Shown here: positions 3,131-61,101 of the stretch, in pieces
Numbering within the stretch: position 1 is the stretch's first letter
Layout: each line of letters opens with the position of its first letter
Assembly (NCBI RefSeq): GCF_022846255.1
Contig: NZ_AP025682.1
Length of the DNA stretch: 64,000 nt
Reading direction: 5' to 3' (one strand)
Source of the DNA: Escherichia coli
Lineage (GTDB): Bacteria; Pseudomonadota; Gammaproteobacteria; Enterobacterales; Enterobacteriaceae
The notes under the pieces: generated by a model
Databases searched by the model: none
What the model was told of the DNA's origin: nothing
Seen by the model: only the letters and a program-made list of their open reading frames with translations
Made by a program: the position numbers and the translations under genes

Positions 3131-3162
3131 CAATACTTTTCTGAACTATGCTTACATAAAAT

Positions 3163-3179
3163 AAGACACGATGTGTCTT
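3163..3179 (+). terminator. hairpin aagacac-gat-gtgtctt followed by T-rich tract
   Basis: 7-bp stem, 3-nt loop, then tttatttaaa; lies between zinc-ribbon gene and paralog 2. Confidence 0.35.
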
Positions 3180-3224
3180 TTATTTAAATAATTCAACAAA
3201 TGTAACACACCCTATCCAGGAGGG

Positions 3225-4778
3225 ATGATGAAAACTGTATTTACAACATTATCAGTCATATTCGGCGTGATATTTTCTCACAGTGTTCTAGCTCAGGACG
3301 TTACTATTTATTATACGAATGACATTCACGCACATGTCAATCCGGCAAAAATCATCGCTGTTGATAAGAACAGACTTATAGGTGGTATGGCTAATATTGC
3401 AGGCATCGTTAATGAAGCGAAGAAAAAAAGCAAAGATGTGTTTTTCTTTGATGCAGGCGACTATTTTACCGGGCCGTATATCAGCACCCTGACCAAAGGT
3501 GAAGCTATTATTGATATCATGAACACTATGCCCTTTGATGCGGTGTCTGTTGGTAATCACGAGTTCGATCACGGTGTGCCCAATATGGTGTCTCAGTTAT
3601 CAAAAGCAAAATTTCCCATTCTGCTGGGAAATATCTACTACACCGATACGAATAAACCAGTTTGGGATCATCCGTGGACCATTATCGAAAAAGATGGTTT
3701 AAAGATTGGTGTGATTGGATTGCATGGCGCATTCGCTTTCTATGATACAGTCGCGGCAAAAGCACGTGAAGGCGTAGAAGCCAGAGACGAAATTAAATAT
3801 TTAAATAAAGCACTTGCAGAATTAAAAGGTAAAGTCGACATTACCGTTTTGCTAATTCACGAAGGTGTCCCGGCGCGTCAATCAAGCTTTGGTAGTAAAG
3901 ATGTGGAGCGGCTACTACAGGCAGATATTGAGACAGCTAAAAAAGTGAATGGTGTTGATGTCTTAATTACCGGTCACGCACATGTCGGAACACCGCAACC
4001 AATAAAAGTTAATAACACATTAATTGTATCTACCGATGCATACGGCACCAACATCGGAAAACTTGTGCTTGATTACAATCCGAAAACGAAGAAAATTGAT
4101 AGTTATAATGGTGAGTTAATCACCATCTTTGCAGATCAATTTAAACCTGACACCATCGTTCAAAATACTATTGATAAATGGAGTGCAAAGCTTAACAAAA
4201 TAACACAGGAAGTTGTCGGCCATTCTCCCGTAGTTTTAACACGTGAGTATGGTAGTTCCTCTTCTACCGGCAACCTTATTCTTGATGCAATGATGGAAAA
4301 AACACCTGATGCCGTTGCCGGATTTCAAAATAGCGGTGGGATGCGAGCTGATTTTCCTAAAGGCGATATCACACTGGGAGATGTTATTAGCACATTCCCC
4401 TTTAATAATGACCTCATCGAGATGGATTTGACGGGCCGCGATCTCAAATCATTGATGACGCATGCAACCAATCTAACTAACGGTGTGTTACAAGTTTCTA
4501 AAAGTGTTGCGGTTGTCTATGACAGCAAAAAACCACTCAACCAACGGTTAATCTCTTTCACCATTAACGGCAAACCCGTGGAAGATAATCAAACATATCG
4601 TATTGCCACGCACTCCTTTTGTGCCAGTGGTGGTGACGGTTTTGAAGCATTTTTGAATGGAAAAAATGTGAAAACGATACCGGGAACAACCTCGGCGGAA
4701 TCTATCATCGATTATTTCAAAAATCACAAGCCTATCACCCCAGACTTAACTAAACGAGTCATGGACGTCGCCAAATAA
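3225..4778 (+). CDS. secreted UshA-family metallophosphoesterase / 5'-nucleotidase, paralog 2 (start may be second ATG at 3228)
   Basis: signal peptide ending VLA-QDV; motifs [35 protein letters not shown]; AT-rich coding sequence. Confidence 0.8.
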   Translation: MMKTVFTTLSVIFGVIFSHSVLAQDVTIYYTNDIHAHVNPAKIIAVDKNRLIGGMANIAGIVNEAKKKSKDVFFFDAGDYFTGPYISTLTKGEAIIDIMNTMPFDAVSVGNHEFDHGVPNMVSQLSKAKFPILLGNIYYTDTNKPVWDHPWTIIEKDGLKIGVIGLHGAFAFYDTVAAKAREGVEARDEIKYLNKALAELKGKVDITVLLIHEGVPARQSSFGSKDVERLLQADIETAKKVNGVDVLITGHAHVGTPQPIKVNNTLIVSTDAYGTNIGKLVLDYNPKTKKIDSYNGELITIFADQFKPDTIVQNTIDKWSAKLNKITQEVVGHSPVVLTREYGSSSSTGNLILDAMMEKTPDAVAGFQNSGGMRADFPKGDITLGDVISTFPFNNDLIEMDLTGRDLKSLMTHATNLTNGVLQVSKSVAVVYDSKKPLNQRLISFTINGKPVEDNQTYRIATHSFCASGGDGFEAFLNGKNVKTIPGTTSAESIIDYFKNHKPITPDLTKRVMDVAK

Positions 4779-55916: not shown

Positions 55917-56842
55917 GTATTCGCATAATCCCGCAAGATGAGCTGGGTTCGAGCGAGAAACGTACGGCGGATATGATTCCGCCGTTATTGTTCCCTCGGC
56001 TCAAGAATTTATACAACCGCCGCGCCGAGCGTCTGCGCGAGCTGGCAGAAAATAATCCGCTGGGTGATTACCTGCGCTTTGCTGCGCTTATCGCCCACGC
56101 CCAGGAAGTGGTGCTGTACGACCATCCGCTGGAAATGGATTTGACCGCACGCATTAAAGAAGCCAGCGCACAAGGCAAGCCCCCGCTGGATATTCACGTT
56201 CTGCCGCGTGATAAGCACTGGCAAAAGCTGCTGATGGCGCTGATTGCTGAGCTGAAACCTGAAATGAGCGGCCCGGCGCTGGCAGTGATTGAGAATCTGG
56301 AGAAGGCATCGACTCAGGAGCTGGAAGATATGGCCAGCGCACTGTTTGCCTCTGATTTCTCGTCCGTCAGCAGCGATAAAGCGCCGTTTATCTGGGCTGC
56401 GCTGTCGCTCTATTGGGCGCAGATGGCTAATCTGATCCCCGGCAAAGCCCGCGCTGAATACGGCGAACAACGTCAATATTGCCCGGTATGTGGCTCTATG
56501 CCGGTGTCCAGCATGGTGCAAATTGGCACCACTCAGGGTCTGCGTTACCTGCACTGCAACCTGTGTGAAACTGAATGGCACGTAGTGCGCGTAAAATGCA
56601 GCAACTGTGAACAGAGCGGCAAACTGCATTACTGGTCGCTGGATGACGAACAGGCCGCGATTAAAGCCGAAAGCTGCGATGACTGCGGCACTTACCTGAA
56701 GATTCTTTATCAGGAAAAAGAACCGAAAGTTGAAGCCGTGGCAGATGACCTCGCCTCTCTGGTACTGGACGCGCGAATGGAGCAAGAAGGCTATGCCCGT
56801 AGTTCCATTAACCCGTTCCTGTTTCCGGGTGAAGGGGAGTAA
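55913..56842 (+). CDS. fdhE: formate dehydrogenase formation protein FdhE
   Basis: 309 aa, paired CxxC motifs. Confidence 0.95.
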
Positions 56843-56934
56843 TCTCTGACGTTTTCCGGGTGGCGCTGGTCGCCCGGATTACAGCTCATAGGGTGTGACG
56901 ACACCTGCTATTCCCGCAAAATCTCTCGTATTTC

Positions 56935-56974
56935 GCGAGGCGTTTTCCAGATATGATGTAACAGTTGCAGTTAT
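56935..56974. repeat. repeat copy A: GCGAGGCGTTTTCCAGAT plus TGTAACAGTTGCAGTTAT
   Basis: first segment recurs at 59036-59053 (one mismatch); second segment recurs at 57397-57414 (one mismatch). Confidence 0.7.
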
Positions 56975-57057
56975 TATAAGTTCAAGTAAAACAGCCTTGT
57001 ATTAATACCAGAATAAGGGCATCTGGTTTTTTATATTCATGAATAAAAAAACTTTTG

Positions 57058-57276
57058 TCATTCCTTATGCTGCTTACATAGTTCTTCAACACCAACTGCC
57101 TCGTCCCTTTGCCTGCCGCCTTTTGCCTTACGCACCGGAAATTGCTGCCGCTCCAGATATTGCTCTACCGCTTCGCGTAAAATTGCAGAGCGCGAAACCT
57201 TACGCCATCCCCGAAGCTTGTTCAGCCGTTTAATTGCCTCTTCTGATAAATGAAGAAAAACCGTATTCATCGCCAT
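57058..57276 (-). CDS. ribbon-helix-helix (CopG-like) putative transcriptional regulator, YiiE/YiiF-like
   Basis: 72 aa from MAMNTVFLHLSEEAIKRLNKL; SD AAGGTGG upstream. Confidence 0.7.
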   Translation of the reverse strand: MAMNTVFLHLSEEAIKRLNKLRGWRKVSRSAILREAVEQYLERQQFPVRKAKGGRQRDEAVGVEELCKQHKE

Positions 57277-57374
57277 TACCACCACCTTACATATATTACT
57301 CATTAATGTATGTGCGAAAATTACGCCGGAAAGTTAATTAACGAAAGCGGATTTTTTCATATTGTTTTGTTTTT

Positions 57375-57414
57375 GCGAGACGGCATCCAAAGATAATGTA
57401 ACAGTTTCAGTTAT
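57375..57414. repeat. repeat copy B: GCGAGACGGCATCCAAAGAT plus TGTAACAGTTTCAGTTAT, upstream of the RHH gene
   Basis: contains tandem CAGTT pentamers; candidate operator. Confidence 0.6.
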
Positions 57415-57502
57415 TTCAATTGTTACTCAAAAATGGTTTATTACTTTTAATTAAGCGGGGGCACATCTACAGGAAAGAAACAACAAATAATAAGGATGAA
57501 TT

Positions 57503-57619
57503 ATGGATGCTATAAATATTTTATATTCAAGAATATTTTTTGATTGGGTCTTCATTTGCTTCATCAGGATGGTGTACCCGAAAAAGTCAGCAGCTTTACC
57601 GCACCAGGGTTTAAGGTGA
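57503..57619 (+). CDS. candidate small hydrophobic protein (38 aa), unannotated-type sORF
   Basis: SD TAAGGA 7 nt upstream of ATG; MDAINILYSRIFFDWVFICFIRMVYPKKSAALPHQGLR; stem-loop at 57637-57663 downstream. Confidence 0.3.
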   Translation: MDAINILYSRIFFDWVFICFIRMVYPKKSAALPHQGLR

Positions 57620-57671
57620 AATCTACCATTCATAACGACCGGTCAGTGCCGCACCAACCGGTCTTTAATTG

Positions 57672-57950
57672 TTAGTAGTAGTAAATTTGTGGATAACAGT
57701 CCGGGAACCAGACGATTCCTTCCGGATCATCCCCCTGCATTACCCGATGACATTGGCGTCGATCATCTGCGCGACGGCGAAGCGTAGTATAGAGCCGCTT
57801 CCATTCATGATCGCCCGGTGTACTGTAGTTTACCCAACAATCCATTGAAGGGTGACGCCATTTACCTGTAAGTGTTGGGATCCCTGAATGCTTATGCGGC
57901 TTCGCTTTACCATTACGATCCCTATCTTTACGCGTATTAAACGTGGACAT
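57672..57950 (-). CDS. hypothetical basic Cys/Trp-rich small protein (92 aa)
   Basis: strong SD AGGAGA 7 nt upstream of ATG. Confidence 0.45.
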   Translation of the reverse strand: MSTFNTRKDRDRNGKAKPHKHSGIPTLTGKWRHPSMDCWVNYSTPGDHEWKRLYTTLRRRADDRRQCHRVMQGDDPEGIVWFPDCYPQIYYY

Positions 57951-58011
57951 TTTTAGTCTCCTGTTAAGAGTTCTAAAAATGTGCTTCCTTAAAATAGTTC
58001 ATCATTTTCCC

Positions 58012-58224
58012 TTAATTCGCATAGCGTGCTTTTGCACGAATTTCCGATACGCGGGGACCATTATGATAGCGTCGATGCCCACACATCCAACAAGAACAAA
58101 TACAGGGAGTACGAAAGCAAATACCTGATGCTTTTTTGCTTCCATCGCCTGCAGTGCGATAACGACAGCGGATTTTTTTTAATCGCACCATATGATGGCG
58201 ACGTTCAGCACGATTACGGGTCAT
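58012..58224 (-). CDS. hypothetical Arg- and Cys-rich small protein (70 aa), possible zinc-binding
   Basis: strong SD AGGAG 7 nt upstream of ATG; cluster CFRTPCICSCWMCGH. Confidence 0.4.
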   Translation of the reverse strand: MTRNRAERRHHMVRLKKIRCRYRTAGDGSKKASGICFRTPCICSCWMCGHRRYHNGPRVSEIRAKARYAN

Positions 58225-58308
58225 AGCAAAACTCCTGAGCAGGCGGCACTATGCCGCTTTCATAGGAGTTCTGAATGCTGGTGCTTTCTGTATGGCATAA
58301 CCATGCCT

Positions 58309-58599
58309 CTAACGGTTAAGTGCTTGCAGCACATGTTGCGGATCATTGGCAATCGCTCGCAGCAAAGCCTTTGCAGGCCCGGTCGGTGAACGTCGCCCCT
58401 GCTCCCAGTTACGCAACGTGTCTACGCTTACGGAAATAAGATCGGCAAATTTAGATTGTGACAACCCTGAAGCGCGGCGTATTTCTTTGATTTTCATAGC
58501 ATCAACTTCAAAAGTCCGTGAAGGCTGTCGCGTTCCTTCAATAATTTCATTCATCTGGGCCATGCTGTGAGTCAACCGCTCAAAAAGTGCCTTATCCAT
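58309..58599 (-). CDS. XRE-family HTH antitoxin (HigA-like)
   Basis: 96 aa; HTH IRRASGLSQSKFADLISVSVDTLRNWEQGRR; start abuts toxin stop. Confidence 0.7.
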   Translation of the reverse strand: MDKALFERLTHSMAQMNEIIEGTRQPSRTFEVDAMKIKEIRRASGLSQSKFADLISVSVDTLRNWEQGRRSPTGPAKALLRAIANDPQHVLQALNR

Positions 58600-58911
58600 T
58601 TACCACCTCGTATTTAACAACCGGAGCATTGCTTTTTCCTGGGGAGACAGATCATCTTTAATACCCTTACGATAAATAAGCAGTAATCTGATCTCATAAT
58701 GTTTAACCTGATGAAAGTAAATAACCCTGACACCAGCACGTTTCCCCTTTCCTCCTGAGACCCATCGAACCTTTCTTAACCCACCAGTTTCAGGTATTAC
58801 CTCACCATAGTCAGGATTCAAGGCCAGGAAAAACTGAAAACGACTGAATTCATCGTCGTTCAGCAGTTTTTGAACATCTTCAGTAAAAATTTCCGTTTCG
58901 ATGAAGAGCAT
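58600..58911 (-). CDS. RelE/ParE-superfamily toxin (HigB-like, toxin-first operon)
   Basis: 103 aa; small basic protein immediately upstream of the HTH antitoxin. Confidence 0.6.
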   Translation of the reverse strand: MLFIETEIFTEDVQKLLNDDEFSRFQFFLALNPDYGEVIPETGGLRKVRWVSGGKGKRAGVRVIYFHQVKHYEIRLLLIYRKGIKDDLSPQEKAMLRLLNTRW

Positions 58912-58948
58912 AATTATACGCCATTGGCTTAGAGTAACAATCCTTTTT

Positions 58949-58965
58949 GTACGTCATTGACGTAC
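58949..58965. promoter_or_regulatory. perfect palindrome GTACGTCA-t-TGACGTAC upstream of toxin gene; candidate TA operator
   Basis: 8-bp arms; adjacent to TTGTTA-16-TATAAT promoter-like hexamers. Confidence 0.5.
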
Positions 58966-59035
58966 CATTGAAACCACTAGCTTACTGATAGTGCTCCAGC
59001 AAAACCACGTCTCTGCCGGGTTTGTCTTTACATTT

Positions 59036-59053
59036 GCGAGGCGCTTTCCAGAT
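59036..59053. repeat. repeat copy C: GCGAGGCGCTTTCCAGAT, 11 bp upstream of esterase start
   Basis: 17 of 18 identical to 56935-56952. Confidence 0.7.
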
Positions 59054-59064
59054 TTTTCACGCCC

Positions 59065-60048
59065 GTGAATTTCCCTGTATCCATCCAGCAAAAACGGGTG
59101 TATAAAACTGTACATTCATACAGCAAAATGAGTTCTACTATGGCACTGGAAAAAGGAATTGCAGAGTTAGTCGAAGAGTTTATCGCTGCGGGTCGCCCCT
59201 CATCGCGCCAACAAAGTATTACGCAGCGCAGAGAGGGCTATATCGCCAGCGCTGTCCTTGCGGGTGAGACAGAAACGCGGGTAGATATTCAGACTATCGA
59301 ACTTGAAGGGATGACCTTACGAATAGTGTCACCGCTGAATGCCCCGACATTACTCCCGACGATAATTTATTACTACGGTGGCTGTTTTGTTAGCGGCGGG
59401 TTCGCAACTCACGACAACCAGCTGCGCCAGTTAGCCTATTACGGGCAATGTCGGATTATTGCCGTCCAGTATCGGCTGGCACCGGAACATACTTTCCCCG
59501 CCGCCCATGATGATGCACAACGAGGTGCAGAATTAGTCCGGCAACACGCCGAACGACTCGGCGTTGATAAACAACGAATAACTCTTGCCGGTGACAGTGC
59601 GGGAGGGCATCTGGCGCTGGTAACTGCTTTGCGATTGAAGCGTGCTGGCGAGTGGCAACCAGCACAACTCATCTTAATTTATCCTATGCTTGATGCGACT
59701 GCGCATTTCGAAAGCTACATACGCAATGGTCACGATTACATCATCACACGCGACACTTTACTGAGCGGCTTTGAGATGTACCTGCCAGGCATTGAACGCA
59801 GGCATCCTGAAGCCAGCCCTATTTGGCGCAATGATTTCAATGGCTTGCCACCTGTACATATCATTACCGCTGAATACGACCCACTTTGCGATGAAGGTGA
59901 AGCGTTGTATCACCGCATGACAGGGCAAGGAGTGCAATGCACCTGCCAACGCTACCTTGGCGTTATCCACGGATTTTTTCAGTTAGGTGGTATCAGTGAG
60001 GCTGCGCGATCGGCGCTACGGGATGTTGCCTGGAGAGCGGGAAGGTAA
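59065..60048 (+). CDS. alpha/beta-hydrolase esterase/lipase (hormone-sensitive-lipase family); start uncertain (GTG 59065, ATG 59128 or 59140)
   Basis: GDSAGG nucleophile elbow, YYGGCF oxyanion motif, C-terminal HGF. Confidence 0.7.
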   Translation: MNFPVSIQQKRVYKTVHSYSKMSSTMALEKGIAELVEEFIAAGRPSSRQQSITQRREGYIASAVLAGETETRVDIQTIELEGMTLRIVSPLNAPTLLPTIIYYYGGCFVSGGFATHDNQLRQLAYYGQCRIIAVQYRLAPEHTFPAAHDDAQRGAELVRQHAERLGVDKQRITLAGDSAGGHLALVTALRLKRAGEWQPAQLILIYPMLDATAHFESYIRNGHDYIITRDTLLSGFEMYLPGIERRHPEASPIWRNDFNGLPPVHIITAEYDPLCDEGEALYHRMTGQGVQCTCQRYLGVIHGFFQLGGISEAARSALRDVAWRAGR

Positions 60049-60111
60049 CTCCGGACCAGGGCCCAGAAAAGGTTTTCAGATTGAAAACCTTTTCAGTCAA
60101 GTAAAACGCCC

Positions 60112-61101
60112 CTACTCTTCTTCGTTTCCGCCCTCTTCATACGGACCAAATGGCTTCGCGGGCAGAACGATATACGTGCCTTCAAACACTGCACCCGGCG
60201 TCTCGTCGCCAAAGATTTCGACCTGCATTTGTACCCGCGCTTTTCGTCCGCGCGCCAGACGGTCGAGATCGCCACTTAAGGCACCAAGGTCGGCTACCGC
60301 ATGGGGTTTACCACTAATCGGTTTGCTATAGCGGATATGCGCATCCGCCAGAATAATCGTTCCGCCGAGGTGGCGTTCGCGCAGCATCAGCCAGATAAGC
60401 CCCCAACCGGTGAGCGTAGCCAGCGAGAATAAACTCCCGGCAAACAGCGTGTGATGCGGATTCTGATTGCCGGTTTCCGGCATGGTGGTGATAAATTTTT
60501 GCCCGGTATATTGCTGAATGCGCACACCCATTTTTTCGCTTAACGGGATATGTTCATACCACGCTTGCTGGAGCTGGGCGCACCAGTCGCCGCGATGAAG
60601 AATATCATCCAGAGTGGCAACAGGTTTTATCATCAAAAAATGGCGAATCGGCGTGGTGGTTGGCGTGGTGATTTCACCCTGATTAACAAACCCCAGCTTG
60701 GCGAAAAACTCCACCGCGTCTTCACGGGCGCTACAGGTCACGCGCTTAACGCCTTCCTGACGTGCCACCGACTCCAGGGTCATCGCCATCAGCGTGCCTA
60801 ACCCTTTGTCCTGCACGTCGGGATGAACGGCCATAAAGCGAATGGACGCTTCATTGTCGGCATTAATATACAGTCGGCCTACCGCTACCAGATTACCCTG
60901 CTCGTCGACGACCATCTGGTGATGCGCCATCGCATCCCACGCGTCGCGTTCCGAACCTTTTGGTTGATGCAGGGGCTTACGCAACATTTCCCAGCGAAAC
61001 TGATAGTAACGCTCTAATTCTTCTTCTGTTTGTGGAACCCGAAGGTGATACATAGCGATACTCTCTCTTGTTTCCCGTGACAACCCTGGAAGCTGGCTCA
61101 T
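60112..61101 (-). CDS. yiiD: GNAT acetyltransferase / thioesterase fusion protein YiiD
   Basis: 329 aa, [33 protein letters not shown]. Confidence 0.85.

Follow-up and report, generated by a model that had tools for sequence, protein, structure and literature searches.

The 64-kb window of Escherichia coli DNA analyzed here (the whole stretch, from contig NZ_AP025682.1) carries, between a toxin-antitoxin (TA) module and yiiD, also named fabY, a gene for an esterase that is absent from E. coli K-12. This raises the question of whether the gene was recently gained by some strains or is an old resident of the locus that K-12 no longer has. The first-pass annotation of the sequence had proposed the former, describing a strain-specific accessory gene inserted next to yiiD, possibly as part of the same islet as the TA module. 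Our analysis indicates instead that it is very probably the E. coli orthologue of Salmonella nlhH, an ancestral gene of the Enterobacteriaceae, probably under SOS control, that was lost or replaced in K-12. Both the type of esterase and the existence of an SOS-regulated orthologue are already known from published work.

Positions 59065 to 60048 of the plus strand form an unbroken open reading frame (ORF) of 327 codons. As the first-pass annotation had described, it encodes a hydrolase of about 300 residues with GDSAGG and YYGG motifs, lies between the TA module and yiiD, and offers three candidate starts (GTG 59065, ATG 59128 and ATG 59140), none of them preceded by a good Shine-Dalgarno (SD) sequence; all of this was present in the sequence, and the start could be corrected. 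The shared N-terminus MALEKGI begins at the codon of ATG 59140 in 13 orthologues from other genera, and no N-terminal extension was seen in any sequence of the orthologue alignment. ATG 59128 is ATA in the alleles of O26 and of environmental E. coli, and the NCBI annotation pipeline (PGAP) placed the start of the 302-aa product at ATG 59140 in a strain 100% identical over the esterase gene. On this alignment the conserved start is ATG 59140, not GTG 59065, and the segment 59065..59139 is most likely an untranslated promoter and leader. The use of GTG 59065 is very unlikely because this codon lies upstream of the putative promoter. The ORF is a real gene, already annotated, and belongs to a well-known enzyme family. 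The elements of the gene and of its upstream region are as follows.

59140..60048, plus strand: esterase coding sequence (CDS), 302 aa plus stop, RefSeq WP_001331553 'alpha/beta hydrolase'.
59065..59139, plus strand: 5' extension of the longest ORF (GTG 59065, ATG 59128), containing a conserved -10-like hexamer and the LexA box.
59106..59125, plus strand: predicted LexA (SOS) box AACTGTACATTCATACAGCA, a 20-mer of the form CTGT-N8-ACAG, 14 nt from the esterase ATG.
59101..59106, plus strand: -10-like hexamer TATAAA abutting the LexA box, a putative promoter element.
59078..59083, plus strand: weak -35-like hexamer TATCCA, 17 nt upstream of the -10, likewise putative.

The gene is variable within E. 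coli. Matches were found in 2,673 of 5,426 complete genomes (2,636 of them at a coverage of at least 80%), and these copies are mostly 95-100% identical and annotated as 'alpha/beta hydrolase'. Genome comparison confirmed that K-12 is without the gene, as the first-pass annotation had supposed: window positions 57708-60111 are replaced in K-12 by 475 bp, and homology restarts exactly at the fabY stop codon. A tblastn search for an esterase remnant in K-12 and O157 found none (best E = 0.05). The 475-bp filler of K-12 derives, by a deletion of about 2 kb, from a two-gene AT-rich cassette that is intact in O157:H7. Lying between yiiE and fabY, the filler includes an annotated 117-nt pseudogene (locus L002, 3229-3703), and the cassette of O157:H7 encodes two hypothetical proteins of about 300 aa each (locus L003, 7747-10275). 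The esterase gene of E. coli SC434 is a gutted copy: its promoter region survives together with 29 nt at the 5' end and ~80 nt at the 3' end of the CDS, the interior is deleted, and a Salmonella-type higBA pair follows.

Outside E. coli, orthologues sharing 74-82% amino acid identity occupy the same slot in the same orientation, with fdhE followed by the esterase gene and the latter converging on fabY (yiiD), in eight taxa: Salmonella enterica, Citrobacter braakii, C. koseri, Enterobacter hormaechei, Klebsiella oxytoca, Leclercia, Superficieibacter and one more enterobacterium. In Enterobacter the arrangement is simply fdhE-esterase-fabY, without any TA genes. Trabulsiella odontotermitis was the only taxon with the esterase gene elsewhere, downstream of a TonB-dependent receptor gene and near minCDE (locus L017, 3400-4409). 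Accordingly, of the label 'strain-specific accessory', the variability within E. coli stands, but the strain specificity does not, the same slot being filled in eight other taxa.

The base composition and the divergence of the gene are those of its host. The G+C content (GC) is 0.52 for the esterase gene and 0.51 for the window, against 0.44 for the TA block, which has stretches down to 0.32-0.39. Compared with the B2-type allele of the window, the synonymous divergence (dS) of the esterase gene was 0.063 in O26 and 0.122 in an environmental isolate, and that of the flanking genes dtd, fdhE, yihY and fabY was 0.04-0.23; within the O26 comparison, the value of 0.063 stands beside 0.062-0.22 for dtd, yihY and fabY. 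The toxin and nadS genes of the TA pair showed a dS of only 0.015-0.03. As the dS of the esterase gene falls in the range of its flanks, the gene is as old as they are, and the TA pair is younger. The proposed membership in a common islet did not hold either, since an 11-bp repeat brackets the TA block at 57383-59032 and leaves the esterase gene outside; with its host-like composition, its position outside the repeats and its presence at this site in related genera, the gene lacks the marks of an islet. Because of the synteny, the host-like GC and the flank-like divergence, the presence/absence polymorphism is best read as repeated loss or replacement, not as gain.

The nonsynonymous to synonymous ratio (dN/dS) of the esterase gene was 0.09-0.16 within E. 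coli and about 0.05-0.10 between genera; these low values imply purifying selection on the protein and argue against a dead gene. Its evolution is nevertheless several-fold faster than that of the flanking genes: with respect to Salmonella, the dN was 0.19 for the esterase gene and 0.03-0.05 for the flanks.

The Salmonella counterpart has a published record. Mérida-Floriano et al. 2021 (PMC8072944) reported that STM14_4846, named nlhH, was induced 15.1-fold by nalidixic acid. They described one SOS box 13 bp from its ATG, shared with the divergent gene STM14_4847 ('higB-2'), which was induced 8-fold, is 312 nt long and lies 217 nt from the esterase gene (PMC8072944). The induction of nlhH was dependent on LexA and RecA, as the gfp ON subpopulation was lost in lexA(Ind-) and recA strains of Salmonella (PMC8072944). 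We found that the primer nlhH-GFP-F of that study encodes a sequence ending in WRVVSPSTGKMT and a stop codon, which is the C-terminus of the Salmonella orthologue in our set (P0112), and that the reverse primer is the reverse complement of the DNA just 3' of the P0112 gene (locus L005). Furthermore, STM14_4846, described as a 'putative acetyl esterase', has the length of the P0112 gene, 930 nt. The primer matches and the gene length therefore identify the esterase gene as the orthologue of Salmonella nlhH (STM4032/STM14_4846). A retracted paper on Salmonella TA modules, used here for gene order only, places STM4032 as a single gene between two TA modules. In a Salmonella dam mutant, which is SOS-constitutive, a 'putative acetyl esterase', STMUK_4015, which plausibly corresponds to the esterase gene, was about 3-fold up.

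NlhH of Salmonella resembles the E. coli esterase in sequence (75-76% amino acid identity), in its fdhE-fabY slot and in having the box about 13-14 nt from the ATG, and its locus shares with the window a divergent gene for a 103-aa toxin. It differs in the His of its HGGCF motif, in a good SD sequence (AAAGG) and in a 7-residue C-terminal extension. In addition, Salmonella has a downstream higBA (sehAB) module, of which the window keeps one operator-like palindrome. The demonstration of LexA dependence is confined to Salmonella.

The upstream region of the E. coli gene makes the same control likely. The motif CTGT-N8-ACAG occurs three times in the 64-kb window, the LexA box being one of the three matches. 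The heterology index of this box was 3.72 and that of the next best site in the window 12.1; the matrix behind these values derives from 27 known E. coli LexA boxes and is approximate in absolute terms, and with it these boxes themselves ranged from 1.2 to 9.0 (sulA 3.64, recA 4.39). Alignment of the upstream regions revealed a conserved TATAA(A/C)-N-CTGT-N8-ACAG. In each of the nine other taxa, Trabulsiella with its relocated gene included, the box is found at -30 to -34 relative to the ATG, and TATAA(A/C/G) is conserved immediately 5' of it in all taxa. The Trabulsiella gene keeps TATAAC and the LexA box 30 nt before its ATG; since the box was kept at the new locus, the regulatory unit moved with the gene. 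In the gutted copy of SC434 the box has decayed (heterology index 17.8).

The canonical LexA-repressed genes of E. coli (sulA, recA, uvrA) have the same design, a 20-bp CTGT-N8-ACAG box with an AT-rich spacer and an abutting -10, and the esterase box is nearly that of sulA. The esterase gene differs from them in that its product is a hydrolase without an evident link to DNA repair and in that K-12 does not carry it. From the intact, high-scoring predicted box and the orthology with nlhH, we infer that the gene is under LexA control in E. coli. It would be transcribed from a weak sigma-70 promoter whose -10-like TATAAA abuts the box; LexA would act as its repressor, and the gene would be induced by DNA damage together with the SOS regulon. 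Its loss or replacement in K-12, O157 and about half of the sequenced E. coli would be why it is missing from the canonical SOS regulon of K-12.

The product has the features of an HSL-type (hormone-sensitive lipase) esterase, as had been proposed from the sequence; this assignment was borne out by Pfam, by its motifs and by matches to solved structures. The Pfam domain Abhydrolase_3 (PF07859, alpha/beta hydrolase fold-3) matched with E=1.7e-68 over 209 of 210 profile positions. There were 108 sequence matches in the PDB at E<=1e-10, headed by the family IV esterases 2YH2, Est8, EH1AB1 and EST2; 2YH2 (PestE) is the nearest solved structure by sequence (E=4.5e-51). The AlphaFold model (predicted template modeling score, pTM, 0.79) gave Foldseek template modeling (TM) scores of 0.73-0.85 to solved family IV esterases. 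The motifs that bear on catalysis, numbered from ATG 59140, are the following.

59374..59382, plus strand: oxyanion-hole motif Tyr79-Gly80-Gly81; orthologues outside E. coli all have His-Gly-Gly.
59590..59607, plus strand: nucleophile elbow G151-D-S153-A-G155-G, aligned to GDSAGG of 2YH2 (PestE); GxSxG, GDSAG subtype.
59878..59880, plus strand: predicted catalytic Asp247 in EYDPLCDEG, aligned to EYDPLRDEG of 2YH2.
59968..59970, plus strand: predicted catalytic His277 in GVIHGFF, aligned to GVIHGF of 2YH2.

The motifs of Ser153, Asp247 and His277 were invariant across 30 orthologues, and the predicted catalytic triad is Ser153-Asp247-His277. Like the solved enzymes PestE (2YH2), Est8 (4YPV), EH1AB1 (6I8D), LAE6 (5JD4) and EST2 (1EVQ), the esterase combines fold-3 with an N-terminal cap, and it shares with these family IV enzymes the GDSAG elbow and the DPLxDEG and HGF motifs of the triad, at 32-38% sequence identity over the structural alignments and TM scores of 0.73-0.84. 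They differ at the oxyanion motif, which is HGGG(F/W) in the solved family IV enzymes, HGGCF in the enterobacterial clade and YGGCF in E. coli. To our knowledge, none of the solved family IV esterases is SOS-regulated. The K-12 protein Aes (YbaC; PDB 4KRX) is a cytoplasmic, HSL-type paralogue of the same family (E=1.5e-29 to 4KRX); it is distant and encoded at another locus. Aes is present in K-12, and its gene is not known to have a LexA box. By its sequence and predicted fold, the NlhH-type product belongs to family IV, and it would act as a carboxylesterase. By our own reading its N-terminal sequence does not have the look of a signal peptide, which would place the enzyme in the cytoplasm.

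Two changes set the E. coli gene apart from its orthologues. One is in the stretch YYYGG (Y77-Y78-Y79-G80-G81) at 59368-59382, where the codon of Tyr79, TAC, is one base from the His codon CAC. Tyr79 was found in only 6 of the 120 best homologues (these six being 91-100% identical to the query, and those named by source E. coli), while the other 114 have His; it was present in every full-length E. coli copy that we translated, namely that of the window, two near-identical ones (at least 99.7% amino acid identity), O26 and the environmental isolate. The canonical HGG(G) motif thus reads Y79-G-G-C-F in E. coli, and the orthologues too have Cys for the third Gly. The E. coli protein retains both of the glycines that supply the oxyanion hole with its backbone amides. 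A literature search on mutation of the His of HGGG led to a paper that concerns the residue following the motif, not that His. The other change is in the SD region: AAGGA or AAAGG stands 6-9 nt ahead of the ATG in other genera, against AAAATGAGTTCTACT or AAAATAAGTTCTACT in E. coli. Considered with how often the gene has been lost, these changes suggest a lowered expression or an altered catalysis in E. coli.

Three other explanations of the locus compete with an ancestral, SOS-controlled gene. That of the first-pass annotation, a strain-specific esterase horizontally inserted by yiiD as one islet with the TA module, could account for its absence from K-12 and O157, its presence in about half of the complete E. 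coli genomes, and its position adjoining low-GC TA genes and repeats. Nevertheless, we regard it as extremely improbable: the synteny is kept in eight other enterobacterial taxa, in Enterobacter without TA genes; GC is host-like; its alleles have diverged as much as those of the flanking core genes, against a much younger TA pair; the TA block alone is enclosed by the repeats; and a deleted remnant of the gene persists in SC434. It is also very unlikely that the LexA box chiefly serves the divergent TA operon (higB-2/sehC-like), with the esterase gene incidentally co-regulated. Several SOS-controlled TA loci are known in E. coli, which would fit such a role. The divergent 103-aa gene of Salmonella was moreover induced 8-fold and reported to share the box (PMC8072944). 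However, the box lies 14 nt from the esterase ATG and 194 nt from the toxin start, and the toxin promoter is predicted at 58940-58913. The box persists in Enterobacter and Leclercia, where fdhE and the esterase gene are direct neighbors, as well as in Trabulsiella, where the gene upstream is that of the TonB-dependent receptor on the same strand; and in Salmonella the esterase gene responded more strongly than the toxin gene (15-fold vs 8-fold).

The third explanation, that the E. coli gene is on its way out, a weakly expressed and catalytically crippled relic hence deleted in many lineages, appears unlikely. It agrees with the confinement of Tyr79 to sequences 91-100% identical to the query against His in 114 others, with the replacement of the AAGGA/AAAGG of other genera, with the loss or replacement of the gene in about half of the genomes and its gutting in SC434, and with an esterase dN that is 3-10 times above that of the flanking genes. 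Against it, the dN/dS of 0.09-0.16 within E. coli points to purifying selection after the change from His to Tyr. The ORF was intact in all four other E. coli copies translated, and in 2,636 genomes the match spans 80% of the query or more. The triad and the LexA box were intact in each full-length E. coli copy examined, and the His of HGG is a non-triad residue.

Besides the approximate scale of the heterology index, several observations weigh against an active, LexA-controlled esterase in E. coli. The -35-like TATCCA fits the consensus at 3 of 6 positions (most other genera have TTTTCA or TTTTCT), and a simple promoter scan returned no plus-strand promoter at the proposed site, so that the putative esterase promoter rests on its conservation across species. 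Literature searches (LexA with esterase, lipase or accessory genome; nlhH with E. coli) yielded neither expression nor binding data on the gene in E. coli. Tyr79 and the loss of the SD sequence may mean that little of the E. coli protein is produced or that its catalysis is changed. The structural model is moderate, with a mean predicted local distance difference test (pLDDT) score of 72.8 and cap regions below 50. Finally, scores fell below the NCBIfam equivalog cut-offs for LipP1 (NF058653, 237 vs 350 bits), chloramphenicol hydrolase (NF033149, 161 vs 500) and Aes (NF007547, 141 vs 389 bits), and therefore no specific substrate or function can be transferred to the protein.

The neighborhood of the esterase gene contains the following elements.

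57383..59032, no strand assigned: low-GC (0.44) block of 1,650 bp with two small hypothetical ORFs and the TA pair, bracketed by TTTGCGAG(A/G)CG.
57672-57950 and 58012-58224, minus strand: the small hypothetical ORFs, with no family matches.
58309..58599, minus strand: NadS-family helix-turn-helix (HTH) antitoxin gene, 96 aa; NCBIfam NadS 60.7 bits against a cut-off of 60, Pfam HTH_3, PGAP nadS.
58600..58911, minus strand: RelE/HigB-like toxin gene, 103 aa, divergent from the esterase gene, with length and layout as in STM14_4847 'higB-2'.
59033..59053, plus strand: conserved motif TTTGCGAGGCGCTTTCCAGAT, repeat copy C (family D3), the right-hand copy bracketing the TA block.
60066..60094, no strand assigned: palindrome with a perfect 13-bp stem, GAAAAGGTTTTCA-GAT-TGAAAACCTTTTC, between the convergent esterase and fabY genes.
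60112..61053, minus strand: fabY (yiiD), the conserved right-hand neighbor, convergent with the esterase gene.

The actual variable islet of the locus is the TA block 57383..59032, which has the features expected of one. Its 11-bp direct repeats, at 57372-57382 and 59033-59043, are the repeats B and C of the first-pass annotation, which had correctly placed copy C (59033-59053) directly upstream of the esterase gene. In SC434 (locus L013), positions 3140-3476 align to window positions 57046-57382 and 3466-3601 to 59033-59168; the two alignments overlap by the 11-nt TTTGCGAGACG (3466-3476), which is a single-copy 'empty site' for the TA block. Insertion in the lineage of the window and deletion in SC434 are both compatible with these data. 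The toxin is 64% identical to its Superficieibacter neighbor, which has a weak RelE match (PF06296). The TA modules at this locus differ across genera (PIN plus ribbon-helix-helix (RHH), HigB plus HTH, ParDE, and RelE-like plus NadS). Most of the two small ORFs (57777-58170) is missing from the otherwise collinear loci of O26:H11 and the environmental isolate (L011, L012). A PADLOC search for anti-phage systems left the esterase, the toxin and both small ORFs without a match, and its matches for NadS were generic HTH ones; an Rfam search of 56800-60200 gave no match at E<=1.

Three copies of the repeat are found in the window, A at 56931-56975, B at 57371-57415 and C at 59033-59053. They have a core in common, which is also invariant ahead of the esterase gene in Salmonella, Citrobacter and Enterobacter, and ahead of yiiE. 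Read on the minus strand, this core is TGGAAA-N5-TCGCA, and all three window copies have the GG-N10-GC spacing of a sigma-54 promoter; Enterobacter, without a leftward gene at that place, is the only case of a broken -24 GG. A sigma-54 promoter was considered for repeats A, B and C and found unsupported, the main text of a sigma-54 chromatin immunoprecipitation sequencing paper being without a yiiE/yiiF site. In the window, copy A lies orphaned downstream of fdhE; its sequence matches that found upstream of yiiE. At 56905-56931 the window is without the approximately 600 bp that carry yiiF, a second RHH/CopG paralogue, in K-12. In several E. coli, O26:H11 11368 among them, a copy of IS621 (IS110 family) lies between fdhE and yiiF (locus L011, 252-1232); this insertion is further evidence that the intergenic region is a rearrangement hotspot.

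On the other side of the esterase gene, the palindrome 60066..60094 folds as RNA with -22 kcal/mol (z = -2.2). A scan between the esterase gene and fabY found no intrinsic terminator, the 13-bp hairpin being without a T-run; the palindrome may act as a transcription barrier. A palindrome of the form GTTTTCA-N3/4-TGAAAAC occurs twice upstream of higB and downstream of the esterase gene in Salmonella, Citrobacter, Superficieibacter and SC434 (L005 6925-7020, L007 6925-7020, L016 4404-4505 and L013 3690-3760), and the single palindrome of the window is, judging from this likeness, probably a relic of the operator of a lost higBA (sehAB-type) module. A decayed higBA remnant is present in C. koseri (locus L018, 4431-4657).

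In summary, K-12 represents the derived state at this locus; the esterase gene is core-like ancestral DNA around which small TA cassettes come and go. A probable SOS-regulon gene that K-12 lacks is carried by about half of E. coli, among them O26/O111 strains and B2-type strains like that of the window, and the reliance on K-12 has left a gap, as a gene with one of the best LexA boxes here appears in no K-12-based list of the SOS response. If its E. coli copy is SOS-induced, it could reveal a role for a hydrolase in the DNA-damage regulon; otherwise it is an ordinary annotated alpha/beta hydrolase. We offer as a speculation, whose parts we think unlikely to be all correct, that the SOS response of the Enterobacteriaceae includes a conserved enzymatic arm missing in K-12, the damage-induced cytoplasmic esterase NlhH; that this enzyme would act on a small-molecule ester tied to genotoxic stress, such as a genotoxin or an antibiotic ester that it would inactivate or unmask; and that E. 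coli would have retuned it, through the change of His79 to Tyr and a weaker start of translation, and given it up in half of its lineages. If this were true, E. coli strains would cope differently with DNA-damaging agents depending on whether they carry the esterase gene.

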